Positions 6,454-64,000 are shown, numbered from the stretch's first letter. The stretch is DNA of 64,000 nt from a virus (IMGVR_UViG_3300028388_001285:1-64000), one strand, 5' to 3'. Notes: generated by a model from the sequence alone, not told the origin. Program-made: numbers and translations.

Positions 6454-6730
6454 GGTTGTCAAACACGCCGTTAAATCACAATTTAAATTTATAAGGGACT
6501 GAACGAATGACCCCAAAAAAGCTTCAATATTACTTCATGAGTTGGGTACCTTCTATCTTAACAAAGATGCTATCTACAATAGGATTGTTCGGAAAGCTAT
6601 ACCACAGATTAGACGCTATGGTAAGGAAGATTGGGCAGTCGACTATTTATGTCACTTACGCAAATTGCGTAGATTATCTCTGGACTATCATCGGAGCAAG
6701 AAGAAAAAGAACAAGACAAAAAATGGATAA
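6389..6730 (+). CDS. HU/IHF-like DNA-binding protein (1 in-frame TGA at 6500)
   Basis: MIRKKIDGLIQLTAEALEMEPKVVKHAVKSQFKFIRD[TGA]TNDPKKASILLHELGTFYLN, an HU-like helix-helix-strand pattern with L..LGTF. Confidence 0.6.
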
Positions 6731-7118
6731 GGAGTTTTCGTTTATAATCCAAGGACAGAAAGGAATCCTTTTGCAGTTGGATGAACTCAAAGGGAACTAT
6801 GACCCAGACTCACCCATCTATGTACCTAACTTTAAGGACGGGCATACTGATGGAGGCAAGATCGCAGCTAAAATCGACAACATGGAGAAATATGCGACGA
6901 TTGCTACTGTACTACAGATTTCTGATAAAGCCGCAGAGCTTATGAAGGAAGATGGCATGGACATTCAAATAGGTGATCGGGTCTATGTTGATCCCGTCGC
7001 AAAACATGCGCGGAATTGGTTTATTCCAGACAGGCATTACACAGTCAAAAATTATACTGGTATGCTACTGGTACACCCTAATAATATACAAGCTAGAGAA
7101 AAAAGAGAAAATGGCTAA
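6723..7118 (+). CDS. GroES-like co-chaperonin
   Basis: ILLQL...SPIYVP...ATVLQIS...IQIGDRVYV...LLVHPNNIQA mirrors the GroES strand pattern; true start is probably ATG 6723, not 6507. Confidence 0.55.
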   Translation: MDKEFSFIIQGQKGILLQLDELKGNYDPDSPIYVPNFKDGHTDGGKIAAKIDNMEKYATIATVLQISDKAAELMKEDGMDIQIGDRVYVDPVAKHARNWFIPDRHYTVKNYTGMLLVHPNNIQAREKRENG

Positions 7119-7437
7119 CAAAATTAATTTTAACAAAATTTCTAAAGCAGATCTCACCAAGGAGTACAAAGCATTAGCATCCAGTAGTATGGAAATCCAA
7201 GCTAAGTATGGAGCACTTATGAGTGAGAACAAAGATTTGAAAGACAAAATCCAAGGCGTACTTGCATGTATCCTGGAACTTATTGGATCTTTTGAAACAC
7301 CAGTGAAAGTAAAATGGTGGTGGTTTATTACTAACCTTGGAAAGATTCAGCGTACAATCGAATGTATTGGTGCCGCTGTAAAGTCCAATCCTAGTCTTAG
7401 AGCTACAGCGCTGGGCGTCGAATTAAAAAAGAAGTAA
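7111..7437 (+). CDS. coiled-coil hypothetical protein
   Basis: MANKINFNK start overlaps the upstream stop. Confidence 0.65.
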   Translation: MANKINFNKISKADLTKEYKALASSSMEIQAKYGALMSENKDLKDKIQGVLACILELIGSFETPVKVKWWWFITNLGKIQRTIECIGAAVKSNPSLRATALGVELKKK

Positions 7438-7438
7438 A

Positions 7439-7957
7439 GTGAAACTGAAGGATATTACCGTAAAGAACGTAAGAAATTTTTTAGAAGGTAATTACAAGAT
7501 GCGCGTACAAGGATACAAACATCTTCCTAAGCATCATCAAGAGCAAGTGGAGTATCGTGCCTTACTTTGCGCTGACTGTTTAAAAGCAGGAAAGTGTAAG
7601 GTATGTGGGTGCGGCACTCCCGGACTCTTCTTCGCACCTAATAAGGTGGACTCCAAAAAAAGATGGGGTAAGATGATGGATGCAACTGCTTGGGAAGTCT
7701 TCAAGAAATCTAACGAGTACCGACAAAAAGTATTAGATGCAATTAATAGAGACACTCCAAACATGGTTACCGATAATACTCCCAAGCCTGACATTCCTAG
7801 CGGGGATGTGGATAGCATGGTTATTGTGCAACCAAAGAGTGAAGAAGGTCCACTCCAAATACGACAAGTGGTGGTACACAGCTCTCAAGGAAGCGGAAAA
7901 AGCGGAGGTTCCGAAAGTGGAACTGAACATGGAGAAGAAGTCAGTAGTAATGCATAA
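7439..7957 (+). CDS. Zn-binding hypothetical protein
   Basis: RALLCADC...KCKVCGC...KKRWG motif. Confidence 0.65.
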   Translation: MKLKDITVKNVRNFLEGNYKMRVQGYKHLPKHHQEQVEYRALLCADCLKAGKCKVCGCGTPGLFFAPNKVDSKKRWGKMMDATAWEVFKKSNEYRQKVLDAINRDTPNMVTDNTPKPDIPSGDVDSMVIVQPKSEEGPLQIRQVVVHSSQGSGKSGGSESGTEHGEEVSSNA

Positions 7958-7969
7958 AACGTACGATTA

Positions 7970-8470
7970 ATGAATGTACTAACAACATTTGATTTAGATG
8001 TAGACTTCTTTGAGGCTAACGCGCAATTGAAGATTGCTTTTAATGATGTAATTAAAACCAAAGGTGAGGAAGCTTCACAGTTCATGTGGTCAATCGCACT
8101 GATGGTCCACCCAGATTCCAAGTACCATAACACTAGTACAAGCTTTAGACAAAAGTTAATTAGAGATGAGTACTTCGCTATAGACTGGGAAGATGAATTC
8201 ACTATTGAAACAATTGATAAATTTAAACATCTTTGCCTAACTAAACAACAGCAGTTTCTCATAGCTTGAGAAAACAAGTTGGAAGAGCGAGATCGTTTTA
8301 TCGAATCGGAACCATACTCAGAAGACAACTATGAAATGCTAGAAAAGCTCATGGGTAATTCTGATAAAATGTGGGAAAGGTACAAGAAATGTTTAAAAGA
8401 TGTTGAGGATGAAAAAGCACACATTAGTGGTGGAGCGATGGAATCACTCGGCGAACAAAATATTATATAA
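7970..8470 (+). CDS. conserved crAss-like phage protein (1 in-frame TGA at 8267)
   Basis: ORFs 7970-8269 and 8279-8470 are in frame: FLIA[TGA]ENKLEERDRFI...GGAMESLGE. Confidence 0.75.
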
Positions 8471-8471
8471 T

Positions 8472-9221
8472 ATGTTTAAGAACTTATCGTTGATATTTGG
8501 AGGATTGTTAATCCTTTTGATAGCAACCACAATATTCCATAAGTGTCAGTCAGACCGTCACATTGACGATGTCTCAACGGCTTTGGAATTCGCGGAACAG
8601 AAAGCTCATGTGAATGACTCTTTGTTACAAGTAAACAATGAACAGTGGGATATAGAAGAAGCTAAGTTGCTCGATTCTATTATGACACTGAACGATGAAT
8701 TAGAAGCTCGGCCCCAGATCATTAGATGGGCATACGGGAAATCTTATAAAGACGAATACAGAATTGCACAAGATTCATTAGAGCACTACAAGGCAATTGC
8801 GGATTTGTATGATACAATAGTACCAAAATTACAGAACGAACTTATAGCGACAGCAGATGCTTTGTTTGCAGCTGAGTGTGCTAGAGATTCGGCAGTACAA
8901 GCATTGTGGGAATATACCCCAGATGACTATGTATTTAAAAATGATTCAGTATCATTCCATTTAACTTACGAAGCTGATACAACTAGTTTGTATGATCCAG
9001 AAGTAGGGCATATGGTAGAGACCCGGCAAGTTACACCGGTACTCACATATGAGATCACAGTAAAACCAAAATTTTATATTAAGGAATTACGTAAACGCAA
9101 GTTATTCAAACGAGGCATTTACGAGATAGGTGTGATATCAAATAATCCAGGAGTATTATTTGAAGACAATACAGCACCAGTAAGGTTTAAAAAAGGCACT
9201 CTAGTATGGAATCGAAAATAA
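8472..9221 (+). CDS. membrane-anchored coiled-coil protein, putative spanin
   Basis: N-terminal TM helix, long coiled coil and beta-rich C-terminus. Confidence 0.5.
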   Translation: MFKNLSLIFGGLLILLIATTIFHKCQSDRHIDDVSTALEFAEQKAHVNDSLLQVNNEQWDIEEAKLLDSIMTLNDELEARPQIIRWAYGKSYKDEYRIAQDSLEHYKAIADLYDTIVPKLQNELIATADALFAAECARDSAVQALWEYTPDDYVFKNDSVSFHLTYEADTTSLYDPEVGHMVETRQVTPVLTYEITVKPKFYIKELRKRKLFKRGIYEIGVISNNPGVLFEDNTAPVRFKKGTLVWNRK

Positions 9222-9272
9222 GAAAAGACGGAGACTGTGACAGTTGTATACTTAGTGAATATTGCAACGGCA

Positions 9273-9351
9273 GTTGTTAGGAAATCGCCTTAGGATCGGT
9301 AGTGGTCCAGTGTTTCTGGGCTGCTATCGGCTAAGGTAAAACACTACAACT
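9273..9351 (+). other. long irregular intergenic RNA hairpin
   Basis: nested pairings AGTTGT/ACAACT, GCCTTAG/CTAAGGT and GTAGTGGTCCAG/CTGGGCTGCTAT. Confidence 0.55.
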
Positions 9352-9446
9352 ATGGGCAAACAAATTTCAGTGAAACCGAAGAAGATAGCTAAGAGAGAAG
9401 GCAAGAAAAAGGAAGTTAAGAAAGTAACACCTAGAAGGAATTAGAT

Positions 9447-9665
9447 ATGGCTAAGATGACAATAGTGAGAGAAAGAAAACCCCTCACAAAGCCTCTTATA
9501 CGAGAGGCTCTGGGGGAGGTTGGCATACGGTTAACCGAGGGTAATCCATACACGTACATGGCCGATTGGGTGTCCCTAGTTGACAGGATGTATAACCTAT
9601 TTGAAGGCGCTCAAATAAACACATTTAGAGTAGAAGAGGATGAGAAAAAAGATAAAAGCAAATAA
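9447..9665 (+). CDS. hypothetical protein
   Basis: 72-aa ORF. Confidence 0.6.
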   Translation: MAKMTIVRERKPLTKPLIREALGEVGIRLTEGNPYTYMADWVSLVDRMYNLFEGAQINTFRVEEDEKKDKSK

Positions 9666-9912
9666 TTTTAAACTTGAAAGGGTAGAGCAATTATACGATG
9701 ATGAGGCAACGTTAGATTATATGGGAGAGAGTTGGGCTAAAGATGCACCTCACGAAGAAGAAAAACCGAAGCCACAAACCGCATATGTTACGGAGGTAAA
9801 TGTATCGGGAGAAACTGCTGCTATCATAGTGAACTTGTTGAAAAACGCTGGCGTAAACTTTGGTTGGAACCCAGCACAGAATTTACATATTTCCTCCCTA
9901 ACTGAAGTATAG
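9640..9912 (+). CDS. hypothetical protein
   Basis: 90-aa ORF. Confidence 0.6.
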   Translation: MRKKIKANNFKLERVEQLYDDEATLDYMGESWAKDAPHEEEKPKPQTAYVTEVNVSGETAAIIVNLLKNAGVNFGWNPAQNLHISSLTEV

Positions 9913-9915
9913 ATT

Positions 9916-10320
9916 ATGAGGTATTTAATCAGTTTATTCATACTAACATTTGCAGTGAGCCTTAGTGCTCAGAAGGACGATATAGTCGCAGCATTTAATA
10001 TAAGCGATGCCGTCCATATCCATAAAGGAGAACATATCAACATTGACCCGAAACCGGAGTCTATAGTATTTCACTGGTACTCAGTACGTTTCAACTATAG
10101 AGTTGAGAACTCTCCCAAAAGAGTGGAGAAAGTTATTGAAGGTTGTTGGGTACGTAACCCACAGTACAAAGGTACTAAGAGGTGGAAGTGCAAGCAGGTC
10201 AAATACAAGGTAAAGAATGGGAATATTATTGAAAAGATACGTGGAACTAAAGGTAAGTTTTTATACAAAATAAAACCGGCCCGTACGATAACCCCCTATA
10301 AACTAAACTACTATAACTAA
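9916..10320 (+). CDS. secreted protein with SPI signal peptide
   Basis: MRYLISLFILTFAVSLSA|Q, a Bacteroidota-style signal peptide. Confidence 0.7.
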   Translation: MRYLISLFILTFAVSLSAQKDDIVAAFNISDAVHIHKGEHINIDPKPESIVFHWYSVRFNYRVENSPKRVEKVIEGCWVRNPQYKGTKRWKCKQVKYKVKNGNIIEKIRGTKGKFLYKIKPARTITPYKLNYYN

Positions 10321-10619
10321 AAAGCACCCCATGTTTATAAGTATGGAAGAGGCGAAGGCTAAAGAGAAGTGGGAATACGAAACGGAGAAAAAACTCATGG
10401 AAGATCCAGAGTATCGTAAGATGTACTACAGAATAATGAGTGGATATTATGCAGGAAAAGCAAAAGAACTCAGAGAAAAAGAAGGGATTAGGCAAGAGAA
10501 CTAACTCTGGTAAATGGAAGAGACCCTCTGCAACCTTAACTGAAGAGCAGAGTAAAGATTTAAAGAAACAAGTAGATAAGATACCACTCTTCGAAGATGG
10601 TAACTAAAGAAATGTATAT

Positions 10620-10718
10620 CTAGCTGTAGAGCGCAGCTGTTCACGGCACTTACCCTGGTATAAAGGTAAGTATAAATGTGAAAGTTCCAGATGGAGAGAG
10701 CTCAGGTGATGCAGTTAG
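10620..10718 (+). other. long irregular RNA hairpin directly upstream of the tRNA
   Basis: nested stems CTAGCTGTA/TGCAGTTAG, GAGC/GCTC, TTCAC/GTGAA and ACTTACC/GGTAAGT. Confidence 0.55.
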
Positions 10719-10730
10719 ATAAACAAAGAA

Positions 10731-10823
10731 GTGCGGTTAGACCGGGAAGGGCTCCGGGGCTGTCTTCAAAACAGTGTGGTCGGTCCAAACGACTTCAGAA
10801 GGGTTCGAATCCTTTGCCGCATG
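10731..10823 (+). tRNA. opal-decoding tRNA, anticodon UCA, long variable arm
   Basis: acceptor GTGCGGT/GCCGCAT, D stem CCGG/CCGG, anticodon arm GCTGT-CTTCAAA-ACAGT (TCA at 10766-10768), variable stem GGTCG/CGACT, T arm AAGGG-TTCGAAT-CCTTT, discriminator G followed by CTA. Confidence 0.9.
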
Positions 10824-10913
10824 CTATGAATTACAAAGAAGTAGGCACAATAGCAGAGCATGAAACAATGAAGATAGTTTTGAAGAATACATGGACGAGA
10901 TAATAAATTAATT

Positions 10914-11237
10914 ATGGGAAGCGGAAGGGTGGAAGGTATTAAGTTCGATGAGTGTGGAAACGATCCTAGAATGGTCGAAGAGTTTATGAAGAACCGACAT
11001 TTAACGGAGGTACGAAGCAAATTATTCAAAGACCAAGTTATTCTAGGCACTAGTTGTTTTCATATATCAAATGGTGGAGAGGTAACGTACGTACCACCAA
11101 ATGAATGGCCCGACTCCACTGTTACGACAGAGAGGGTATCCATAGAAGACATGATAGAAATATTTGGAGACATACTTACTGATAGTCAAAAAAAGTCGTT
11201 AAGCAAATGGAACACAGAAAAGAAAAATGGACGATAG
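10914..11237 (+). CDS. hypothetical protein
   Basis: 107-aa ORF. Confidence 0.6.
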   Translation: MGSGRVEGIKFDECGNDPRMVEEFMKNRHLTEVRSKLFKDQVILGTSCFHISNGGEVTYVPPNEWPDSTVTTERVSIEDMIEIFGDILTDSQKKSLSKWNTEKKNGR

Positions 11238-11503
11238 ATAGAAATTGGGTGCAGGTAGGAGATAGATTGAAAGACTCTAATGGAGCAGAATACTATGTTT
11301 TAGAAGTTGAGCAAGACAGGAGCGACTTAAACAAACACGAAATTACTACTGGACTAGTAGGCAATGTTGCAGTAACTGCGAAAGAAATAGAAGAAAACTT
11401 GGTCCCACAACCTTTTAATTTTGAGAAGCATTGGGCCCAACAATTTTATCAAATGGGTTTTAGCGACGCTAAGGCTCAAATATATGAATTAACAGGATTA
11501 TAA
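11207..11503 (+). CDS. hypothetical protein
   Basis: 98-aa ORF. Confidence 0.55.
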   Translation: MEHRKEKWTIDRNWVQVGDRLKDSNGAEYYVLEVEQDRSDLNKHEITTGLVGNVAVTAKEIEENLVPQPFNFEKHWAQQFYQMGFSDAKAQIYELTGL

Positions 11504-11666
11504 TTATGCTCTGGAGTTACAACGAAACAGGATTAAACAGTTATAGTACAGCTTTGTTCGACACTGTAAATCCGTACAACACAAAATTATTTAACGATAC
11601 TGAGACCGATGGAAACCTTGGTCAATCAATTACAAAATACTCAACTAGTTTATATAATTTAAGCTA

Positions 11667-11885
11667 ATGAAACGACTAGATCACATAGATGTAGGATTTT
11701 ACGTAAACAGTCAGCCTGGAGATCCATTCTACGAATTTACTATCAGTAGGAAACTTGTAGAAGAAATACACAAAGACATGATTGGCGACACCTCAGGTAT
11801 CATTATGCGTGAAGTTTGTAATATGATAGACAAACTAATACGTGAAGGATACATGGTCGGAGTCGATGAAGAGACGGTTATATAA
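11667..11885 (+). CDS. hypothetical protein
   Basis: 72-aa ORF. Confidence 0.6.
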   Translation: MKRLDHIDVGFYVNSQPGDPFYEFTISRKLVEEIHKDMIGDTSGIIMREVCNMIDKLIREGYMVGVDEETVI

Positions 11886-11896
11886 TAACCAAAGAA

Positions 11897-12222
11897 GGGC
11901 GTGACGTGGCATCGACATGTGCGAGGAAGGATAAGCGAGAGATACACAACAACAAAAGGCAATTATTACATTGACCAGTTGAAAGAAGCTGTAGCAGCTT
12001 TGGAACAACTCTGGAATGAGCGCACCAGACCAAGAAAAGTGCTCACTGTGGTACAACATTACTACGCATAGAAGGTTTGTAGTTTCCTAATGAGGACTTC
12101 ACGTCCACAATAAAAGAACTACTGGTGGAGTTTGGCTGACGAAGGTTGGCCCCAATTTTCATCTCGTTTGAGTTTATTTGGAACGTATATGGACCTGGGT
12201 TCGACACCCAGCACGTCCACTA
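11897..12222 (+). ncRNA. ssrA: tmRNA (transfer-messenger RNA)
   Basis: 5' GGGCGTG pairs with 3' CACGTCC, giving G3.U70 and A73 (Ala identity); GG..TCGAC 5' motif; P2 ATGTGCG/CGTATAT; GGAC followed by T arm CTGGG-TTCGACA-CCCAG; internal tag ORF 11958-12071. Confidence 0.88.
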
Positions 12223-12305
12223 AATTAGATTAATATGTATTTGATAGGATGGCTCATCGTCGGATTGTATATCGGCAATTGTTTGGTGAGTAAAAATTAG
12301 AGAAG

Positions 12306-12755
12306 ATGACAATAGACAATAGGATTGAACTGCTGAATAAAGTTCGTACAGGGTTAAATATGATGTTAGACGACCTGAGCGAGTTAGGGTACCAACCGCA
12401 CACAAGTTTCGGCACCATTAGTACTAAGCTTAAGGAAGCTAAGTTCTGGTTGAATGACACGTATGTCGAACTCCAGAAAGAGAGGTTGAATGTTGAGTCG
12501 GCTCCAGTAGAAGATTCAGGTGAAGTCTTAGAACTCGGTGGAACTCCTAACGACTCCGAAAAGACTATCAATAACCACTTTGTTGACATGGTGAATGCAA
12601 CGGCCAAGGAAGAGGGAACTCAGTTGGAGCTACCACATGGAACCATAGATGTTATAGGTGATAGGGAGGAAGAGAAAGAGGATAAGTTCGACGTTCAAAA
12701 GTTTGAAGCGGATTTAAACAAGTATTTAAAAGAATTACTAAATTTTAAAATGTAA
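12306..12755 (+). CDS. hypothetical acidic protein
   Basis: 149-aa ORF directly upstream of groEL. Confidence 0.7.
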
Positions 12756-12761
12756 TAGACA

Positions 12762-14438
12762 ATGAAGAAAGATATAACTTTCCATAACAAAGCCCGCACT
12801 GGGCTGATCAACGGAATCAAAGTTATTGCCAATGCTGTAGGCGCAACGTTAGGCCCGAAAGGGAGGAATGTAGTTATCGAGAAATCATACGGTGCTCCAC
12901 ATGTTACTAAAGACGGAGTTACAGTTGCTGGGAGTGTTGTACTTGAAGATGCTGTAGAAAATTTAGGAGCTCAAATCCTTAAGCAAGCGGCAGCTAAAAC
13001 TGTCAAAGAGGCAGGAGATGGTACTACTACTTCTATAGTGTTGGCGCAGAAATTGGTAGAAGAGGCACATAGACAGATATCTAATGGTGCAAACCCAATT
13101 GATATCAAGCGTGGTATGGAGCAAGCCAGCAAAGAGGTAGTAAAGAAACTGCAAGAATACTCTGTACCAGTGAACGACGATTTCGATAAAATTGAACAGA
13201 TAGCAACTATATCTGCTAATAATGATGTAGAGATAGGACAATTAATCAGACAAGCTTTTGAAGCTGTAGGCAAAGACGGCATCGTAGCGGTAGAAGAATC
13301 CAAGTCAGTTGACACCTTCGTGAATAAATCAGAGGGTATGCAGTTTGATCGTGGATTTATCTCCCCATATTTTGCTAATAATGCTAAAGGTACCTGCGAA
13401 TTTGAAGACCCGTATGTACTCATATACGACAAGAAGATTCGTGGTACTGGTGATATTGTACCTATACTGGAAAAGGTGGCGCAGAAACAGAAGCCCATTC
13501 TTATCATAGCCGAGGAAGTAGAAGCACAAGCTTTAACTTTGTTGGTTCTGAATAAGATGCAAAGGGGCGCACAATTTTGTGCTGTCAAAGCTCCAGCATT
13601 TGGAGACCGGAGACGTAAGGTTTTACAGGATATCGCGACCGTTACTGGTGGCACACTGATAAGTGAAACTGTTGGAAGGACTCTGGAAGATGTAACATTA
13701 GCAGATCTTGGTAGAGCTGAAAAGATTCAAATTACTAAAGATGACACGACGATTATTAGAGGCGCGGGCTCGCCAGAAGAAATTGCTCACAGAATTGAGC
13801 AAGTCAAAAACGAGATTAATACTACAGAGTCCGAGTATGAACTCAGTAAAACTAAAGAACGTCTCGCCAAGTTGGTGGGAGGTGTTGCCGTATTACACAT
13901 TGGAGCAGCCACTGAGGTCGAGTTAACTGAGAAAAAAGACCGTGTCGAAGACGCATTAAAGGCTACTCAAGCCGCACTTGAAGAAGGTATCCTTCCCGGA
14001 GCCGGTTCATCTTATATAGCGGCTGCACAAGATTATCAACCACCTAGCATTCTGAATAACAGAGATCAGTTAGCTGGAGTACGATGTTTGGAAGCAGCGT
14101 TAGAGCAACCACTACGCATCATATCCGAGAATGCAGGAAGACCTGCTGACTTGGTCCTTTCGAGAGTTAAAGAAGCTATGAGCTTAATTACTCACGATGA
14201 ATTGGAGAGTGGTGACGGTTCATATGCGGTTAAATTCAATCAAGGGTTTGACGCAAATAACGGCAGTATTGTAGATTTACGGGAACATGGGATTATAGAT
14301 CCAACTAAGGTAGTTAGAGTAGCATTGGAAAACGCAGTTAGTGTAGCCGGTATGTTGTTAATGACAGAGGTTACGGTGACTGAAAAAGAAGAACTTAATT
14401 TAGACATCCCTGGAGGAATGCCTCCACCAATGCAATAA
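12762..14438 (+). CDS. groEL: chaperonin GroEL (Cpn60)
   Basis: [52 protein letters not shown] motifs. Confidence 0.98.
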
Positions 14439-14440
14439 AA

Positions 14441-15217
14441 ATGAGATTTGCTAATTTTACACAAAAAGTTTTAACTGCCCTATGTATCATGGGATTCTTT
14501 TTGCACTTTGCAGCTCACGCACAGACTAACAATGATACGGTATATGTATACCCATTCTTGTTCCAAACTGAGAACGCTGCTGAGATTCAAATATTCCTAG
14601 ATGGACCACAGGCGTATCAAGATTCGATCACGTCAATTCAGTTTCCCGTAACATTCTTCGGGGGAGTACCATCAGGTGTTGAGTACCATAATGGACTGGC
14701 TACGAAGCTGATGAATACTAATATAAAGGATAATCAGGTATTATTTTCCTGGTTAACACCTACACTTGAGATGTTTAAGACATCCCCACTTGCACCAATT
14801 TTAACTATAAAGTTTGATAAGCCAGGAGTGGATTCTATACATTTCGGTGACTCAGATTGGATGCGAGTAGAGTTTAGTACCATCACTGCTAGAGATACTG
14901 TACCACCGATTGTCACAATCGAAGCATTACCTTGGAAACTTGGTTACGTACAAGAAGGTGCTGGATTAGAAGATTATGCACCTGCGATAGTAAATACTAT
15001 CAGTGCCGGAGATAGTAAGATGATTAAGGTATATCCAAACCCGACTACCGGGACTGTGAGATTTGAAGCCATTACACCACCTAACCGTATGAGGATCTAT
15101 GATTTAGCGGGTAAGGTTATGTACGATGGAGAGTTTAAACATGAGGTGTATTTCAGCCAGACTGGCATATTCTTTGTACAACTGGATGATATCATTATAA
15201 AAGTAATTAGACAATAA
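14441..15217 (+). CDS. secreted protein with cohesin-like beta domain and type IX secretion (T9SS) type A C-terminal sorting domain
   Basis: signal peptide ...AAHA|Q; C-terminus IKVYPNPTTG...IYDLAGK...GIFFVQL...KVIRQ. Confidence 0.85.
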   Translation: MRFANFTQKVLTALCIMGFFLHFAAHAQTNNDTVYVYPFLFQTENAAEIQIFLDGPQAYQDSITSIQFPVTFFGGVPSGVEYHNGLATKLMNTNIKDNQVLFSWLTPTLEMFKTSPLAPILTIKFDKPGVDSIHFGDSDWMRVEFSTITARDTVPPIVTIEALPWKLGYVQEGAGLEDYAPAIVNTISAGDSKMIKVYPNPTTGTVRFEAITPPNRMRIYDLAGKVMYDGEFKHEVYFSQTGIFFVQLDDIIIKVIRQ

Positions 15218-16604: not shown

Positions 16605-16622
16605 ACTACTAATAAAGTTATA

Positions 16623-18911
16623 GTGCTAATAAACTACGAACAATATTTAATCAAAGAAGTACCGGCGTTCCACCCACTCTCCGAGAAGTATGTGCATTTC
16701 TGGAAACATGAGAAGCGCAAGTGTATTGAAGGCTGCTGAGTATCTGGTAAGTGGATGCCCGGTAAGCTGTACTTCTATGTGAATTACGGTACTATTAAGT
16801 TAAACAAGGATGGAGCTAAAGTTAAGTCTTACGGGCGGCCTTGATTGCGTAACTTAGAATGAGAATTTTTCTATAATTGAGCTGAAGCTAGGGGCTTTTC
16901 CGGCTTCACAAAAGACACACAATATACCTGTTTGAGGGACGTCCTGGAACTCAGAGAAGAGGGTATATTAAACGCACCACACTACATAAAGGCGCAACAT
17001 CCAGAAGCCGTTAGAGAAGACGGTACACTGAAGCAGTATATACCAGCCCGCGAATACCTTCGCAAGATACACCCACACAACTTAGGATCACCTATATACA
17101 AGAACGAAGCTAAGAATCTGTTTATGATCGGAGCTCGTGGTTACGGTAAATCGTTCTGTGTAGGAGTAGGCATAGTAGCACATGAGTTCTTATTCGATGG
17201 TAAGACCAGCTACAACTTGAATGACCCTATCACTGCTGCGGAAATCGTAGTGGGGGCAGGAGATGCTAAGTACTCCAGTGAGACTTTGGGTAAAACTAAA
17301 GTAGCATTAGATAACTTACCTGGAGGTATGGAGATCAATGGAGTTTATTATCCATGCCCATTTTACAAGCAATACAAAGGTAGCTGGACCCCGGCTAGGC
17401 AAATCGAACACCTCTATAAGAAGAAGATTGGAGGAAGCTGGACATATGGAGGTACTGGTTCAAACATCAAGCACAGAACGTTCAAGGATAATCCTTTCGC
17501 CGCTAACGGCACACGTCCCGGTGTAATGATATTTGAGGAAGTAGGTATGTTCGAGAATTTGCGTGAATCCTATAACGCTAGTGTAGAATGTCAGAGATAC
17601 GGTTCTGTAAAGTTCGGTTCTATGATGTTCTTAGGTACTGGTGGTGATATGGAGGGAGGTGGTACTCTTGATGCACAGGAATTGTTCTACAATCCTGATA
17701 ACTTCGACTGTATAACCTTTCCGGATATCTGGGAGAACAGGGGTAAAATCGGCTATTTTGTACCTGCGTATAAAGGTTTGGATAAGTTCAAGCCCATGAA
17801 GAAGTATAGTGACGGCAAGTTCTGGACAATGTATCAGGATGGAGAGACCGACTATGATGCTGCTAAAACATTCCTCAACAAGCATAGAGATAAACTCAGA
17901 CAATCTAAGGGTTCTATGTCAGCTTTGGAGGGGGAGATTATTAACCGCCCACAGGTACCGTCTGAAGTATTCCTTCAGAAACACGGTAACATATTCCCAG
18001 TAACTGAGCTTAGAGATAGATTAGTGAAGTTGGAAGAAAGCGGTAGGTGGAAGATGTTAGAGAAGAACGTATCATTATACTTAGACCCGAAATCGAAAGA
18101 ATACAATGGTGTCAATTACAAGATTGATGTCAAGAATAGGTTAAACCCTATCAACAAATACCCTTGGAAAGAATCCGAAAGAGAGGGCTGCGTGACTATT
18201 TATGAGTTTCCAAAGCTTATAGATGACAGAGTTCCGGAAGGAGCCTATATAATTGGACATGACCCTTACGCAAATGATGACCCAAGTGGCGAATCGTTAG
18301 CAGCTGTTTATGTGCTTAAGACCAAGAAGCATTTCAGCAAGCTCGGACATGACGAAATAGTAGCTACTTATGTGGCACGTCCATATGCTGGACGACATGT
18401 CGTAAACGAAACTATACTCAAGCTATCTCTGATGTATGGTAATGCGAAGATTTACTTCGAGAACGTTCGAGGAAATGTGAAAGAGTACTTCGAAAAGATT
18501 AAGAAATTACACCTTTTAGCCAAACAGCCCACAACAGTACTGTCTAAGAAGGCTTCATATATGCATGGTTCTGCGGTAGTATATGGGTATCCCATGTCAA
18601 GTAGAGCGATGAAGATGGAGGCTATACAATATGTTAGGGACTGGTTATTGGAAGAAAGAGAGGTTGACGGCGATAGAATAGTATACAATCTAGATAGAAT
18701 CTGGGATAGAGCCTTGCTACAGGAACTCATAGCCTTTAATATGGACGGTAACTTTGACCGTGTTATGGCGCTAGCAGGCTGCATAGTTGGGTTGAATGAG
18801 ACCCATAACCAATACGAGAAAGAATTAGTCTCAGAATCTAAAGTAGACCAAGTAGTAAGCTTTCTAGTCGACAACTCATATATATTTAACAACACGACTA
18901 GACCATGATAG
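16623..18911 (+). CDS. terL: terminase large subunit (4 in-frame TGA in the N-terminus)
   Basis: GTG 16623; FWKHEKRKCIEGC[TGA]VSGKWMPGKLYFYVN...RP[TGA]LRNLE[TGA]EFFYN[TGA]AEARGFSGF; Walker A GARGYGKS, Walker B IFEEVG, nuclease IGHDPY and GNFDRVMA; ends TGA-TAG. Confidence 0.95.
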
Positions 18912-55190: not shown

Positions 55191-58100
55191 ATGCCAGAAA
55201 TAAAAGATGTCGTAAGGGCCATTCTGCACCAAAAGGCGCAGCAGGGTTTTCTTGCTGGAAATCCTTCTGTAAGCAGAGAGGGTTTTGTAAATCTAGATAA
55301 ATTTGGGAAATATGACAAGACGCTCACACCTGGAACATGGGAGAACGTCAGAAACTTGTCCCCAAGAATGGCTCAGGAGTACCACAGAGGTACAGAGCAG
55401 CCATGAAACCACAAATATGCAAGGGGGATTGCCAACTTTGTCACAGGTACTGCTTCTAAGGTTGGAGCCACTGTAGGTTTTGCAGCCGGAGCTCTCGGAG
55501 CGCTAGCAACCGGAGAGTTAAGTACGGTCTACGATAATGCTGTAGTGGACGCCTTTACGAAGGCTGAAGCGGCTATGGAGATACCTATTTACGTAAAAAG
55601 ACAGTATGCTGAAGGCAACCTTATACATAAGATGGGTACCACTGAGTTCTGAGCTAAGGACTTAGGAGAAGGTCTTGAATTCTTGGCCAGTATGTTTATA
55701 CCAACTTACGGTATAGGACTTGCAGGTAAGGGTTTACAGGCTGTAGCTAAATCTGCTAAAGTGGCTAAGGGATTGGCTCGCGGAGAGCGCGTGCTTACTA
55801 CTGTACTGAACAGTACAGTTGAGGCAGGGTTTGAAGCCAAACATGCTAACGATGAGATTAGAGACCAGCTAGCTAGGCAGAGGGGGTACATATCATATGA
55901 TTTATTACCACCTGATATACAACAGGAGATCTCGGTTTTAGCGGGACAAGCTGCTGCTAGAACTTTCTGGGGCAATATGATTGGTCTGATGTTACCCAAC
56001 TATCTGGAGTCTGGTTGGGCTAGGAGTATTATGGGGTTTGACAAAGCAGGTTCCAATGTACGACAAGCCATACGTAAGAAAGCACTATCCCCTGACGATA
56101 TAGTTAAGGCTAAGTCCAAGTGGAAAGCAGCTACTAAGGGTCTGGTGTCCGAGGGTCTTTGGGAGGAGAACTTTCAAGAAGCTGTAGGACAGTTTGAAGC
56201 TAGATTAGCGGAAGGTAAGATCGAAAGAGAAGACTACGCTAAAGAATTAGTACGTAACCTCAGCAACAATGCATGGGGTTTTGCTCGTGCAGTACCTAAC
56301 TTACCGTTCGCACCGTTTGGTGTAGACTTCGGTATAGCTGCTAAGGCTGGCACTGAGCAAGATGCTGGTGCCACTGCTATCGCACTCGGAGCTATCATAG
56401 GTTCTGGAATGAGTACTGTGTCGCAAGCGATGGACAACGCTAGACTGCGAGAATCAGCTGAGCGTGAGAACTCACTTTGAGGTGACCTAGTGAAGTTCAA
56501 GGAAACATTAGACAAGATACTGGTTGACGATCAGAAATCTATATATAAAACTTTCGGAACTGAGACCGACGAAGAAGGTAACGAGACTCCTATCTATGTT
56601 AATCCTAAGACTGGAGCTACCGAGATTGACCCAGATAAATTACGTAATCTAGCTCTGGCTAACACTGTAGACTTAAACTTCTTTGATGAAGCTGTGTTTG
56701 CAGATGTTAACAACGATGAGTTGTGGGCCACATTCAACGATAAGATGGCGGCAGCCTCATATGGGTGGTACTTAGGATCATCCGGGATATCTAAAGAAGA
56801 TGCACAAGACTTACTTGAAGGTAGAGAAGATGCCAATGAGATACTGTCACTCATGGACTCGTTTGAAGAAGCGGAGAGGGACTCCCAGACTTCCGACGAT
56901 ATTCGTGGTGAGCAGGTCGACAAGAAATTTAAACGGTTCTTGCATAGGATCAATTACTTCCTTAATGCTCGTGGCAAGATGCTGGACGAGATGTATAGTA
57001 AGAACCCTGAGGTTATCGGTCCTATGGTGGAAGATAATCAGGCAGCTTTACAGAAGGTAACTAACGCTAGCTCTAGGAAAGCTTTGAAGAGTGAGTTTGT
57101 AGAAGCTGTAGGTGGTATAGATACTCTCAATAGAGAGGTTAAAGAACTAGAGACTGAGTTTGAAGCTGTTAAGAAGACTGACCCAGCTAAGGCTGATGAG
57201 ATAGCTAGGAAGATAAGTACTAAGAACTATCTAATGTCAGAGAGAATGCACGTAGACGGCTACGATGCAAACTTACAAGGTATAGATGCGGAGAACAACA
57301 AGGCGCTTGTAGATGAGTACTTTAGGTCTAAGCATAACAACCCTACTACCTTAGGTATGAACCCATCAATGGCGGTAAGCTACCAGTCATTACGGGATCG
57401 TAAGTACTATAGGTTAGGTAAAGCTTACATGGCCGCTAAGGATATCAACGACATAGCTGATGAATTTTTAGAGGAAAGAGATATTGATGACTTGAGTGTA
57501 GGTATTGAAGCGCTCAGAGGATCTGCTAAATATTTTAATGGTGAGAACTCTGATGTAACTGCTGCTACCGAAAAGATAAATACAGCGTTAGATGAAGAAA
57601 TAGACAAGATAAACATAGGACTTCAGGAAGTAAACGAAGCCATGTATAATTTGGCCGGTGAAAACCTGGGTGCTGAAGAGACGAAGTTAGTAGCTACGCA
57701 TCTGAAGGATACACAGAGTCAGTTACAAACACAGATGGGTCGTATTAAGTTGTTACGCGAGGAGATGTCCTCAGCGCATGAAGCTATTAATGCTACTGAC
57801 GATGAGTACGCTGCATGGAATACTGAGGATGGTCTGAAGATGGAACACTTCCGTAACCTGACTAAGAAGATATGGGCATTAGATAGCTTAGCTCTGGAAT
57901 CATTCGATAACCTTGCTAAGACTATGCAGTTCATGCAACTGTTGTTAGGAATAGAAGCTGCCTTCGAGGATAGAACTGACATCAGCGATGACCTAAAGGC
58001 AGATGTAGCTGCTGAAATACTACAGCTTAAGGAGATACTTAAAGCTTACAGAGAAGCGGCTGAAAAGAATATGCAATCCAGAGCCTCGAAACAGGTGAGA

Positions 58101-61100
58101 GCTTTGCGGGAGTTAGGACAAGTAATGAATGAGGCTACTCTGAAACTTGAAGCTCCAAGACAATTATTGCTAGATGTATTTGGTAATGATGCTATCAGGG
58201 AGTTCGAGAAGCAATTTGGAGACGAACCTTCTTTCGAACAGTTCGAGGTATTGATGTCCCTGTTCTCAGAGAGAGCTAGTGATGGGCAAAAGCAGAAGAT
58301 GCGTGAAGCATTGCTGCGCACAGGACAGTCGACGGTTTCAGCATTGTCTACTCTCAGTAAGGGATTAGCTGATCCCATGAATCCTACGGATAGGGGGAGT
58401 AAGATACTAACAAATTACCTTGCGAATCCCATTAAATATGCGTCCGCAATTGTGATGCCACTACTTGGAGGAGGACTGTTCACACCAGAGAATACTATAT
58501 TCTGGGAGTATAGGGAGAACAAAGACATAGCAGAATTTAAACACCAACTTGAAAGTATATCTTACGCAGGTTTATCAGTAGACAAAGCTAGTAAGCTGAA
58601 AGCATTCTTCGATGCACATACATTAATGCGTGGATTACAGTTGGCTGGGGAGTTTCTCAGCGCTGAGAAAGCTAACACTGCTAGGATACTTGAGGAAGAG
58701 GTGAAACTGCATAAGGTATTGTCTAAGGACAAGGCTCCTGAAGACGTTATAGCACCTACTCCACAGCAGTATGTAGCTTACCAAGAGGCCATACGATTCT
58801 TATTCAAACCATTAGCGTCCAAGTGGGCGAGTAATACATTCTATCTTGAAGGTTTCCCTGGGTCTGGCAAGACTAAGGTAGCTGCTAGAAGGATAGTTGA
58901 CTTGTGGAAAAGTTTGGAACATATCACAGACAGTCAGATTTATACGGCTGGTAACACTGTGGCGTCATCAAAGATTATCCACGAGGCTGTTAAGGGTACC
59001 GAAGGAGGTGCCACTACTATTGAGGATCTGTTAGCTGCCGACTTAACTAACACCAAGTTAGTCATAATTGATGAGGCTCCAGCTTTAGAGAGAAGTGTAG
59101 CGTTAGCTTTAACGAAGAAGTTAAATGCTGCTAAGGTGAAGACTATAATCCTGGGCGACCCTGCACAGGTTACAGTAGATGCACACCCGTTTTTATTAAA
59201 CGAAAAGTACATCAGAATAACTATGTCAGATCCACTGACTGCCAGTTATCGTACTAACATACCAGCCATCTATGATTTCTTCATCAACTTTAAAAACACT
59301 TCAGCGGTACACAGACAGTTAGCTGCTACTAGTAACATGTCGCTAGGGGATGTGATTAAACCGCACTCAAATGCTCTCGGTGTTGTAGGAGATACTGAGA
59401 GAAGTACGATGCTTAGGGCAATTGCTAGACCTAGCAGCAGATCGAAGTTACTTATAGTAGCCAATAAAGATCAGAAGCAGCGATACCTCAATGAGTACTT
59501 CAAAGATCCTGAGTACAATATATCTGATGTAGAAGTATTAACTTACGATCAGGCTAATGGTATACAGGCTGATGAGGTGTACATAGATATGCCCACAACT
59601 GCATTGGACATCAAAGGCAATAACTTCAAACCTATTGGATACAACAAGGCTATGTATACTGCTGCAAGTAGGCCGGTTAAGTTCTTGTTCGTGTTAGGCT
59701 CATTAGTACAGACACAGGTAGACAGTATGTTAGACTCTACCGTGCAAACTGCTGCTAGTGAACTGCTTCAAAATGTGGAGCAGTATGAGGGTATATTAAC
59801 TGCTAAGGGTAATGCACATGCAGCCCTAACAAATGAGGCTGTAGATGGTACGTTGTTCGATGACATTGATGAAGTGTTTGATGCAGCGAAGACTACCGAC
59901 AAGGAAACTACAGACGATGATATAGAGATTGCTAGACAAGAGCGAGGTAGCCCGGATCAGGAACTGCCTGAGGAACCAGAAGATGTTGGTGCTATAGAGA
60001 AAGAAGATCTAACTGAAGAACCAGTTGAACCTACTAAGTTGCCTAGAGTGACTTCAGAGGTAATCGAATATGACTTCAAGTTCCCACAGAACTCTAACAT
60101 TAAAGTTGACAATTTAGTAGCCACAGGCTCACAGTTTAAAATAGTAGCTGCTGTTTCCAGATCACCTAAGAAATTTCCGGTAGCACACTACGTAGTGGCT
60201 CCAACTATAGGTGACCCTAATAGATATGTGGTAGTAGCTATGTTAGGTAACGATGATTACCAATCCGGTGAGATGGGAATGTGGCTGAAACGTGAGGAAA
60301 ATAAATTCAAGGCTGATCCGAATAGAGGGCCAGTTGAAAGTTCCACACGTATCAGAATGGATGAAGATGGATTTGATTGGGGGCCAGACCTCGACAGAGC
60401 TGTTATAGGAGAAGGTACGTTAAGTAATGTACAAAAGTTACAGTATGTATATGACCGTAGTGCTGAGACAAGCATGGAGTCTGACATACACAAGTACTTG
60501 GATACGTTCTTCCCAAATGATGACACTTATCGTACTGGTAAGAAATTAAACTGGGCAGCGTTGAACCCATACATTAAGTACAAGATATTTACATCTGACT
60601 TTGGACCTGATGCTGCATCTAAAGTGCCTAAGGGACAATTTGTGCCTAGACCTGGTGTACCATATGCGGTGCTTCAGTTACCGATGCCTAACAGCGAGAA
60701 GAAACATTCTCCACAATACATAAGACAGCAGCGCCGTAAGGTTAGGATGGATCATCCGTATATAAAGACTCTTCGTGAGTTGTACGATAACATCATCATA
60801 CTTGAGGCTGGACTAGGACTTGAGTACGGTACGGAGGAGTTCAATAAACTCATCAAGGCGAACGCAACTAGATTTGAGCTTGGACCCAAAGAGAATGGGT
60901 TCCCAGTGAAGTTGCAAGATAACCCTGCGATGCCTAAGGAACTTGAGGATCTAACTGCGGAGCAGATTAATGCTCTGGACAGCTTAGTCAAGTTACTATA
61001 TGGGGCTGAATATTCTAGAGTTGTTGTAGAGACTAAAGCTGAAGCAAACGCTTTCACAAAGTCTGGGGATGGTAGATTCTATATAGACAAGGAATATACT

Positions 61101-64000
61101 GGTAATGGTTATGCGTTCATGGAACGTGTGGCGGAAGATTCCTCTATCGCTCAACCTGAGCCATACAGACAATGGCAGATGAGGGGTGGTGTAGGCGAAG
61201 CTTCAACAGCATTCAACGCCATAGCTGTAGCTAATGGTAAGATTGAAGGACTTAATATTAAGGTTAAGAAGCGTAAGAAGACTAGTATAGGAACTGTTGA
61301 GTTCTACGTTGGTAAGTCATTACTAGCGTTCACAGAGAACACTCGTAGATTCATGGCTGCCATGCGTGGTAGGTACGAGGATACGCGGAAAGAGGCTAGT
61401 GACTTCCTAGGCGAAGCTTTACCTGAGAAGTTTCCCAGAGATTGGGAGACAGCTATGAAGGTATTAGCTAAAGTATATGATGATAGTAATGGTTTGTACG
61501 GTGTTGATCGTGCAGATATTATGAGGGCACAGAAGGAACTAATTGCTAAACCAGTCACTACAGACTTGTTGGCACAGATCGTCACGCCTACTAGTGAAAG
61601 ACACCCAAGCTTAGAATTACCTATCTATCGAAAAAGTTTCGGACACGACAAGACAAATACAGGGTTTAATGACCTTGGAAGTAACTTAAATAACAAAGAC
61701 AATAGAGCTAGGATCGCTGAACAGGTGCACGGTAACCTTTCTAGAGTGATACCTACAGTAGTTACGGGCAGAATAAAGAATACAGTTACCGTGACTGAGC
61801 AACAGGTACCAGTTAAAGCACCTAAGAAAGTCAAGACACAATCTCAATTCAATAAGCTAACTGTGGACCAACAGTACAGTAAGATAGTCGGACTGCATAA
61901 GCAAGGACGGGTAGATGATGAAGTGCTGCAATGGGCTGCCGAAGCTAAAGAAGATAATGATAAAACCTCGCTTGAAAAGATATGGGAGCTTGGTAACATG
62001 ACAGATACTATGCGGTCTATCAGTACAGATACTACACATGTATCTAAAGAAGAGGCAACCAAAATATTAGGTCGATTAGACTTAGAGCATAGGACATACG
62101 AACTATCTGAATTAGTGGATAAGTTGACGCAATTCATGTCACCATTTCATAGGAAGTTGATGTGGGCACTGACACACGCAATAGATAGTTTAAGTAAATC
62201 TGGTATCACTGTAGATTTAGCACACGTAGCTAAGGGAGACTACGCACATGCACTTGGACTTAGATTCCCTGACGGAAGGATTGGACTATATACTGGTAGG
62301 ATATTCCAGACAACTAAGAAATACACTGGGTTCAAGTTGGGCAGGGTACTGGCTCATGAGTTAATACATGCTATTACATCCGATAAATTATATCGGTTTG
62401 AGACTGCGGAAGAAGAGTTCACTGGACGCGAGCGCGAGATACTACAACAGTTATTCGATATATTCACGTACGTTAAATCCCTTAAAGGTGTACGTGGAGA
62501 TATGGATAATTTGCGAGAGTTTGTTGCGGAGGTATTTGCCAGCGAGAGGCTTGCAAGAGATCTATCTAGAATAGAATTACCACCCGAACTGAGGTACAAA
62601 ACTAACTCTAGGGGCATCCTAGATACTGTTAAGAACCTCATCACTAACTTGCTAAGAATAGTGATGAAACCATTCTTACGTACTAGGTCAGCAACGGAAG
62701 CTGTAATCAATTTAGCCGGAGAACTTATAGACATGCAGCATAGAGCTGGTGTATACGATGACCCTAAGAAGGGGCATCATGCACTGTCACTGGATGACCC
62801 AGACGGGTTCCAGTATATCAAGACTAACTTTGGTGGAGTCGAAGGTTATAGGATAGCCAAGAACTTTATCCTAGAGAGGTTGGCATACTATAAGATGACT
62901 GATGATGACTCCGGTAGAGAGAAGAGTGTTGGGTACTTTATACCAGTTGATGATGCTGGATTCGTAGCCTCTAAAGAGGAGATCTACTATCAGATACATT
63001 CTGATATCAATTCACATATAGCATTCAATAGAATGTTAGCTAAGAACTTGGTACGAGATATTGCTATGGATGAAGCTGCGATAGAGTCAGCCACCAACGT
63101 ACGTCAAGAGAGGCTAGCCAAGATTGCTAAGGAGATATCTGAAGCTAAGTTAAAAAGGGTGCAGGACGCAATACCTGCTTTCGAGACCCTGATGCGTAAC
63201 AATAGAGTGACACATCGTCCAGTCTACTTTGAAGTTATGAAGACTATCTTCCCTAACTGGTCGATAGGAAAAGAGACTCAGTTGGACAAGTACAGGTACG
63301 ACACTAATGAAAACTTAATACGTGAGATGATGTCTGTGGAGGGTGTAAACCTTAAGGAGCAGATCATCGACAACGAGTACCAGAATAATGTACATAAGTT
63401 AAGCGATTCAGTAAAGGACTTCTTGTCAATAGTACAGTACACTACTAGTGATAATAAGATTGTAACAGTTAATCCAAGCTACGCTTATGTACGGGCATTG
63501 CAACTATTCCGCAAGTTAGACTTCAATACTATTGTAGATTTACAAGACTTTGAAGATAGGAGAAAAGAAATAGAGAAGACTGAAATCATAAATGATGCTA
63601 CTACCTCTATACTGGATAAGTTAGCTGACTTATTACAAGATGCTACGTACACTTATAACATGCCTAAGTATGTCAATGTGATTATACATAGACCTATAGG
63701 GGCTTTAACAGACGAGTATTACCTAATACTGTCTAATACGGAGGAAGTAACTAACGTAGTACTTCTTGAAGAAGCTAAGGAGATAGCAAAGAATGACCCT
63801 GATTTCAGAATTGTAAAGAGCAGTTCTTATATACTCAGAGATTTATATGAGGAGGCAAACATGCCTATCACTCCTAAGCAGTTCAACAAACTATATGACA
63901 GAGCACTAGCTAGGAATACATTAGCTGAGCTACACACATTGTTCTCATCTCAGAAGGAGACCGAGTTAATGATTGCTTCTAAAGGTCTCGACAAGAATGG
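55191..64000 (+). CDS. giant virion cargo polyprotein (>2900 aa, runs off the window) with SF1 helicase-like and zincin domains; in-frame TGA at 55404, 55650, 56478
   Basis: EQP[TGA]NHK and TEF[TGA]AKDLGEG; GFPGSGKT (58851), IIDEA, LGDPAQ, SYRT, MYTAASR; HELIH (62355) with downstream EFVAE; no stop in this frame after 56480 (the track lists no ORF there). Confidence 0.85.

Follow-up and report, generated by a model that had tools for sequence, protein, structure and literature searches.

A TGA-decoding tRNA, a minimal tmRNA and a chaperonin pair upstream of the terminase gene of an uncultured crAss-like phage

We report here the analysis of a region of the viral genome IMGVR_UViG_3300028388_001285, in which a GroES-like gene, a tRNA with anticodon UCA, a transfer-messenger RNA (tmRNA) and a GroEL gene lie close together. 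The genome is a single contig of 81,997 bp, about 81% complete as estimated by CheckV, and the window means its first 64 kb (positions 1-64000). The phage is a distant uncultured crAss-like phage of an environmental lineage. Its major capsid protein (MCP) matches Pfam Crass_capsid, its TerL and portal match crAss-type PHROGs (phrog_6681 for TerL), and its closest cultured relatives are the FpV4-like phages of Flavobacterium psychrophilum, with MCP identity of just 32%. An earlier reading of this DNA from its sequence alone (the sequence-only reading below) had claimed the co-location of the four genes and had joined them in one takeover module upstream of virion genes containing in-frame TGA. 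Overall, our results show that all four genes are real and that their order recurs in relatives, that TGA is read as Trp on the evidence of alignments, and that the tRNA is firmly tied to this recoding, the tmRNA loosely and the chaperonins not at all.

The four genes are all located on the plus strand. From left to right, a divergent co-chaperonin gene of GroES/Cpn10 type (6723-7118) is followed by a conserved gene of unassigned function (7958-8470), which forms the left border of a variable island and has its homologue upstream of that island in most relatives; then come the TGA-decoding tRNA (10731-10823), the one-piece tmRNA (11897-12222), GroEL (12762-14438) and, as the first morphogenesis gene bearing TGA, TerL (16605-18911). 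The order conserved in relatives is GroES-like gene, g7427 and/or g7958, variable island, GroEL and TerL. The RNA genes, where present, always lie inside the island, and in seven lineages the tRNA(UCA) and the tmRNA are spaced by 0.1-1.4 kb, in either order. Because the same gene order, with the two RNA genes at most about 1.4 kb apart in the island, recurs in at least seven diverged relatives, the co-location is not a matter of chance. A megablast search of positions 10500-14500 against GenBank phages gives zero matches.

The in-frame TGA codons that the sequence-only reading had seen in the virion genes are borne out, and these codons face Trp in relatives. Under the standard code, neighbouring open reading frames (ORFs) of the same frame are often split by a single TGA that neither a start codon nor a ribosome-binding site follows. 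In tblastn alignments, the TGAs at positions 8267, 16737, 16860, 16878, 45156, 55650, 76697 and 78268 face Trp in relatives, while the in-frame TGAs of relatives face mostly Trp in the window. TerL has four in-frame TGAs (16737, 16842, 16860 and 16878), all within its first approximately 92 codons, three of them facing Trp in relatives; its true start lies upstream of the ORF called under the standard code (16881-18908), which drops an N-terminus that the relatives keep. The TGA at 8267, in the gene 7958-8470, is opposite Trp in four relatives. In the whole genome we count 49 in-frame TGA against 321 TGG, on both strands and in left-end, late and minus-strand genes. Recoding is genome-wide, reaching beyond the virion genes downstream of the four genes, and the alignments show that TGA evidently stands for Trp in this phage. 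The island from about 8.4 to 15.8 kb, including both RNA genes and GroEL, contains no TGA at all; by a rough estimate it holds about 27 TGG codons, which gives a chance of about 0.02 for the absence of TGA at the genome-wide rate.

The tRNA is reported by ARAGORN at 10731-10824 on the plus strand, with anticodon UCA. Rfam calls no RNA family in the window at its gathering thresholds; in E-value mode, the tRNA-Sec model matches 10731-10822 with 36.2 bits (cut-off 47), and a purpose-built covariance model, R1, scores the window tRNA at 77.6 bits. All four standard tRNA stems covary among homologues. The assignment as a selenocysteine tRNA (tRNA-Sec, RF01852, also the ARAGORN label) was dropped, as the fold is 7/5 and not 8/5 (13-bp branch), the score stays below threshold, the eighth and ninth pairs of the model are mismatched and the TGA sites face Trp and neither Cys nor Sec. 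The window tRNA has UCA, A37, G1.U72 and G73, and its homologues have A1-U72 or G1.U72, with G73 in all of them. We take N1-U72 together with G73 to be Trp-type acceptor features, following the identity rules of Escherichia coli TrpRS. The body is not that of a class I tRNA with a short variable loop, having instead a covarying fifth arm of about 20 nt (10775-10797) with a stem of 5-6 bp and the 7-nt loop GUCCAAA. Among 11 homologues, 88% of the cells of this arm are paired and 29 cells have double changes, and its covariation score of 1.10 compares with 0.22 after shuffling and with no more than 0.27 after sliding. Within the loop the core UCCAA never varies, and NUCCAAA as a whole equals the anticodon loop of tRNA-Trp(CCA). 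The fifth arm would thus display a copy of the anticodon determinant of TrpRS, probably keeping the tRNA chargeable by the TrpRS of the host. The relatives have two designs of tRNA(UCA), namely a class I tRNA-Trp(UCA) (L038, L039 and L043) and the five-arm form with N1-U72 and G73. The anticodon-mimic reading is not valid for every five-arm member, because the extra arms at L057:5195-5331 (with an insert of about 60 nt) and L122:6392-6492 (with UCGAAA in the loop) are without the CCA motif. For the window, these features point to a Trp-type opal suppressor that is predicted to be charged with Trp.

Several tRNAs and tmRNAs of relatives, including intron-split and odd-armed forms, are overlooked by ARAGORN. 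At L023:6198-6963, in a TGA-recoded relative, the tRNA(UCA) has its anticodon loop interrupted, following CUUCAA, by about 660 nt of inserted sequence, which comprises a group I intron (Rfam 46 bits) and an ORF of 228 codons. A second group I intron of the same relative (77 bits) is located at 7476-7717; a tmRNA split by it was looked for and not found. At L056:5378-5462 the 3' half alone of a five-arm tRNA(UCA) is located, with the fifth arm (loop AUUCCAACC), the T arm and the 3' strand of the acceptor stem; ARAGORN misses it, and the gene is probably also split by an intron. In addition, L056:6859-6962 and L080:6336-6448 contain, in the island that also holds the tmRNA and tRNA(UCA), a conserved tRNA-like RNA of 104-113 nt with a 7-bp acceptor stem, a T arm, two internal hairpins and no recognisable anticodon arm.

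The tmRNA is placed by ARAGORN at 11897-12220 on the plus strand, and in E-value mode Rfam matches RF00023 at 11897-12222 with 45.7 bits (E 1e-15; gathering cut-off 47), a score drawn solely from the tRNA-like domain and helix 2. In relatives, nine records with six distinct tmRNA sequences score 49-76 bits with RF00023. Direct reading shows an intact tRNA-like domain of alanine type: the 7-bp acceptor stem pairs GGGCGUG with CACGUCC, followed by A73, and includes G3.U70, the alanine identity pair, and the T arm is normal, with the T stem CUGGG/CCCAG. A resume context AAAN-G(G/A)Y-AAY is common to all eight distinct phage tmRNAs of the lineage. In the window it places a probable tag frame at 11958-12071, resuming at GGC (11958) and running for 37 codons (starting GNYY and ending HYYA) to a TAG stop at 12069-12071. 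The tag peptide proposed by ARAGORN (22 residues, starting APDQ) was dropped, as it lies in another frame than the conserved resume context and is not conserved. The eight tags of the lineage have 19-37 codons, are mostly acidic and vary widely in sequence between lineages; they end in YA, YV, LV or VV and never in LAA, and their stops are TAA or TAG and never TGA. Just 24 nt separate helix 2 from the resume codon in the window, and several tmRNAs of the lineage are only 237-262 nt long, leaving little space for pseudoknots 2-4. The window gene is accordingly read as a minimal one-piece tmRNA, predicted to be alanine-chargeable, and its tag, lacking the LAA end, is presumably no ssrA degron.

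GroEL (558 aa, without TGA codons) is identified beyond doubt. Its residues 22-542 of 558 match Pfam Cpn60_TCP1 (PF00118) with 250 bits against a cut-off of 34.3, it matches phrog_5725 with 511 bits, it shares 45-49% identity with GroEL from bacteria and other phages, and it is syntenic in relatives, upstream of TerL. The GroES-like ORF (ATG at 6723, end at 7118, 131 aa) has no direct match in Pfam or PHROG. However diverged, it has orthologues in at least 17 relatives; among the 17 that were aligned, 13 match Pfam Cpn10 (PF00166) with a best E-value of 3e-9, and the profile of the family matches solved GroES chains in PDB (E 0.005). The AlphaFold (AF2) model of the protein has a predicted local distance difference test score of 83, and its top 10 Foldseek hits are all GroES, with probabilities of 0.98-1.00, E-values around 1e-2 and template modelling (TM) scores to the target of about 0.5, the TM score being depressed by a long hairpin at residues 32-66. 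On homology and predicted structure, we accept the product of 6723-7118 as a putative diverged co-chaperonin with an enlarged mobile-loop hairpin.

We then compared the genetic code with the presence of these genes in relatives. The sample consists of 80 relatives obtained from IMG/VR by TerL alignment and six from metagenomes (about 85). The code was called by counting in-frame TGA in curated conserved genes; the two chaperonin genes were searched for by tblastn, tRNA(UCA) with the purpose-built covariance model, and tmRNA with Rfam over whole records. The counts below are of assessable rows and ignore kinship, so that the rows are not independent. On the TerL tree the code changes 7-9 times. 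Of the 22 recoded rows, 20 have tRNA(UCA), which none of the 26 standard-code rows has, and 4.8 of 6 phylogenetically independent contrasts have the same direction, for which p is 0.06, the best value reachable with so few pairs. These results support a firm tie between tRNA(UCA) and recoding in the genomes compared. The idea of the sequence-only reading that the tRNA switches the code stands in this respect; a simple late switch does not, as TGA is also present in left-end genes, in 7958-8470 and in minus-strand genes. The tmRNA turns up in 11 of 20 recoded rows, against one of 26 standard-code rows (row-level Fisher p 1e-4), and changes about five times on the TerL tree, which is suggestive of a loose link to recoding. 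GroEL is present in all 32 recoded rows and also in 26 of 35 standard-code rows, and changes only twice on the tree against nine changes of the code. It is missing only from two basal clades, from L004/L025 and from the cultured FpV4. Standard-code relatives with GroEL and the GroES-like gene in the same positions are L024, L027, L031/32, L041, L064-67, L070-73, L081, L085 and L089. Because GroEL is frequent in standard-code rows and changes only twice on the tree, the chaperonins are uncoupled from recoding; their claimed coupling fails on co-occurrence with the code among related genomes, by which the sequence-only reading had proposed to check it.

A second lineage of crAss-like phages also bears on the tmRNA. 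By blastn, the window tmRNA matches the annotated tmRNA of the RefSeq crAss-like phage cr130_1, and the latter as query finds five more tmRNAs, all in Suoliviridae/Oafivirinae. A permuted two-piece tmRNA of the Oafivirinae lies at L129:6939-7329 (NC_055901.1 82000-82390), and four sister records are alike. Like the window phage, the Oafivirinae are crAss-like phages with stop recoding in late genes and a phage tmRNA, whose 3' end, in the T arm and acceptor stem, is 97% identical over 29 nt to that of the window tmRNA. All five examined (cr130_1, cr7_1, cr124_1, cr273_1 and cr131_1) use in-frame TAG many times in their late genes but not once in the early ones, and the recoding is heavy, with for example 74 in-frame TAG in one gene of 5,800 codons. 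Three of the five (cr7_1, cr124_1 and cr273_1) have a tRNA(CUA) according to ARAGORN. They differ from the window phage in that TAG is recoded and not TGA, that all five tmRNAs are permuted and two-piece, with short tags of 12-15 residues (the tag of cr130_1 stops at TGA), that the tmRNA lies about 11 kb from the suppressor tRNA, and that no GroEL stands beside TerL in the stretches seen. The Oafivirinae thus provide an independent pairing of tmRNA and stop recoding, with another codon and another architecture, which supports the loose link; being a single clade, they count as one more event only.

On the whole, we lean, with rather modest confidence, to the view that the region consists of two units differing in age and purpose and not of one module. 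The first unit would be the pair of GroEL and GroES-like genes, acquired once by an uncultured crAss-like sub-lineage, retained just upstream of the packaging and head genes under either code, and most likely folding the morphogenesis proteins of the phage. The second would be code-change equipment in the rapidly changing island that the chaperonin genes flank. Its first part, the Trp-type opal suppressor tRNA, would make TGA readable as Trp; its second part, in some lineages including that of the window, would be the minimal tmRNA, alanine-chargeable and dependent on host SmpB. The suppressor would drive ribosomes past TGA stops of host messages and of (early) phage messages, and some of these readthrough ribosomes would arrive at mRNA 3' ends without a stop codon. 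There the phage tmRNA, with host SmpB, would add rescue capacity and tag the products with its own long peptide, whose fate may differ from that of ssrA and which would end on a stop that the suppressor cannot read. Among these steps, the use of TGA for Trp, the presence of the UCA tRNA, and the tmRNA with its alanine identity pair and conserved tag frame are read directly from the alignments and the genes. The module of the sequence-only reading is retained in this proposal for the tRNA plus the tmRNA and is given up for the chaperonins. It would hold, if taken whole, that all four parts form one takeover system in which GroEL and GroES buffer mistranslated and readthrough products besides folding the capsid. 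The four genes do lie within 8 kb on one strand upstream of TGA-containing morphogenesis genes, in and around an island free of TGA, GroEL occurs in every assessable recoded row, and the recoded Oafivirinae carry a small coding sequence (CDS) annotated 'chaperonin'. We nevertheless regard this as very improbable, as the two chaperonin genes hold the same positions in many standard-code relatives, with two changes of GroEL against nine of the code, and as the 'chaperonin' CDS of cr7_1 has no meaningful similarity to the GroES-like family (hhalign probability 4%).

As for the tmRNA, our tentative proposal, put forward with less confidence than the division into two units, is that it is a recurrent and previously unremarked part of the toolkit of stop-recoding phages, recruited at least twice in crAss-like phages, once in one piece next to a TGA suppressor and once permuted in TAG recoders, to mop up the non-stop ribosomes that the suppressor makes. 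The tags would have been remodelled, being long and no ssrA degron in the lineage of the window and ending, in both lineages, on stops unreadable by the suppressor; on the side of the tRNA, a fifth arm would show a CCA loop to TrpRS. Several observations weigh against the role given to the tmRNA here and in the second unit. The window tmRNA is 1.3 bits short of the Rfam gathering score, and its central 232 nt, the region of the pseudoknots, is unaligned to RF00023. A Pfam search for SmpB gives no match in the 82-kb genome (about 81% complete), and a phage without SmpB means a tmRNA that would rely on SmpB of the host. The tmRNA differs in just about 0.5 of 6 independent contrasts, a test without power, and shared ancestry may explain the row counts; moreover, most contigs of relatives are fragmentary, so that some absences may reflect incomplete sampling. 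No tmRNA is found in nine assessable recoded relatives (L023, L033, L034, L036, L038, L039, L057, L091 and L098), nor in L122, and the near-complete recoded genomes of L038, L039 and L055 yield none. Finally, the standard-code relative L029 has a weak tmRNA (22.6 bits, L029:7388-7624) with a homologous tag of 32 codons, although its 3,300 aligned codons are free of in-frame TGA, TGA is the stop of its TerL and its island is without tRNA(UCA); this tmRNA may have been left over from a recoded ancestor or may foreshadow recoding. With about half of the recoded lineages lacking a phage tmRNA, its part can be no more than that of an accessory, not required for recoding. The coupling of tmRNA to recoding claimed by the sequence-only reading is suggested by the row counts and by the second lineage, and is left without help from the contrasts and spoken against by L029 and by the recoded relatives without tmRNA. 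The contrasts, L029 and the recoded lineages without tmRNA also favour a different explanation, in which the tmRNA has nothing to do with recoding and is an accessory translation gene for general rescue or for sensing the state of the host, lying near the tRNA as the island gathers small RNA genes. In agreement with this, huge phages have tmRNAs whatever their code (PMC7162821), and the island of relatives also houses other tRNA-like genes and introns. Against it, the tmRNA is absent from all 25 other assessable standard-code rows, including the five near-complete genomes of L024, L027, L067, L073 and L085; the second crAss lineage, with another recoded codon and another tmRNA architecture, also has a tmRNA; and every tag stop examined, in the eight tags of the lineage and in cr130_1, is unreadable by the phage's own suppressor. 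We consider this explanation doubtful, while taking it seriously. It is also conceivable that the tmRNA serves the TGA-rich mRNAs of the phage itself, cut or stalled at hungry UGA codons where the suppressor is scarce or release factor 2 (RF2) competes, the long tag directing truncated virion proteins to some protease that is not ClpXP or barring them from assembly. The clustering of TGAs towards the 5' ends of large late genes, TerL among them, and long, mostly acidic tags ending in aromatic plus small residues and not in LAA, would fit such a role, which is quite unlikely in our opinion, as no rescue would be needed at a slow UGA, where RF2 normally terminates, no evidence of mRNA cleavage is seen, and the tag sequences diverge widely between lineages.

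Besides these genes, some features of the genome and of its relatives deserve description. The plus strand holds nearly all genes up to 73 kb, beyond which there is a minus-strand block. The largest gene of the phage, at 55191-64000 in the window and extending to 73292 in the genome, is a giant reading frame with about 6,030 codons, four of them in-frame TGA. The host is probably a member of Bacteroidota. The ORF directly after GroEL (14441-15217, 258 aa) has a weak match, below the cut-off (E 6e-4), to the C-terminal sorting domain of type IX secretion, which hints at a Bacteroidota host. Group I introns (Rfam 52-72 bits) interrupt the MCP genes of L001, L005 and L007, leaving as many as five pieces (examples are L001:18557-20352, L005:17252-17473 and L007:7055-7366), while the MCP gene of the window is uninterrupted.

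The interest of these results lies in a general difficulty of recoded phages. Stop-recoding phages in standard-code hosts must tolerate the damage that their suppressors do to termination. Should phage tmRNAs help them to do so, two small RNA genes, expressed jointly or singly, would allow a direct test of what a code change costs, and the presence of tmRNAs in mid-sized phages would be explained. The genes missed by ARAGORN help to explain why suppressors were found in only about 35-40% of recoded phages in earlier surveys. These crAss-like phages have the chaperonin pair as a trait of their lineage, and it would be wrong to count it among the equipment for recoding.

It is of interest to compare the parts of this region with known systems. 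For the chaperonins, gp31 of phage T4 replaces GroES in capsid folding, and gp146 of Pseudomonas phage EL is a phage-encoded GroEL. The window phage resembles them in having a co-chaperonin with an apparently enlarged mobile loop and a GroEL homologue among morphogenesis genes, and differs in encoding both partners and in a co-chaperonin too diverged for a direct Pfam match. With regard to the code, Yutin et al. 2021 (PMC7886860) described crAss-like phages with TGA-to-Trp and TAG-to-Gln recoding and suppressor tRNAs, with no mention of tmRNA or chaperonins. Their phages share with ours the crAss-like affiliation, in-frame TGA at Trp sites, a phage UCA tRNA and code switches over short phylogenetic distances; here the lineage is environmental, and TGA occurs on both strands and not in late genes alone. 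Borges et al. (bioRxiv 10.1101/2021.08.26.457843) reported in Jade phages a code-change operon of TrpRS, release factor 1 (RF1) and suppressor tRNA written in standard code, again with no mention of tmRNA. The likeness is a cluster of translation genes in standard code upstream of recoded late genes, which corresponds here to the TGA-free island of 8.4-15.8 kb. The difference is that here a tmRNA accompanies the tRNA, and neither TrpRS nor a release factor was noticed, with no systematic search made for either.

For the tmRNA, Al-Shayeb et al. 2020 (PMC7162821) interpreted the tmRNAs of huge phages as serving ribosome rescue, in genomes above 200 kb that often have SmpB and many translation genes; the present genome has 82 kb, no SmpB found in it and only one tRNA. 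A mechanistic link from a suppressor tRNA to a need for trans-translation was drawn by Ueda et al. 2002, as cited in PMC3985003, where readthrough by nonsense suppressor tRNAs in E. coli is stated to produce non-stop complexes handled by SsrA; that system, so far as the citation describes it, is a laboratory setting with the host's own tmRNA. In recoded E. coli, rescue systems are reported to act at unassigned stop codons (PMC6207430). Our literature search found no paper discussing tmRNAs of crAss-like phages or linking phage tmRNA to recoding, although such tmRNAs are already annotated in public records. Each kind of part is known in phages; what may be new here is that a tmRNA is repeatedly paired with a suppressor tRNA in recoding phages, and that the tags are remodelled.

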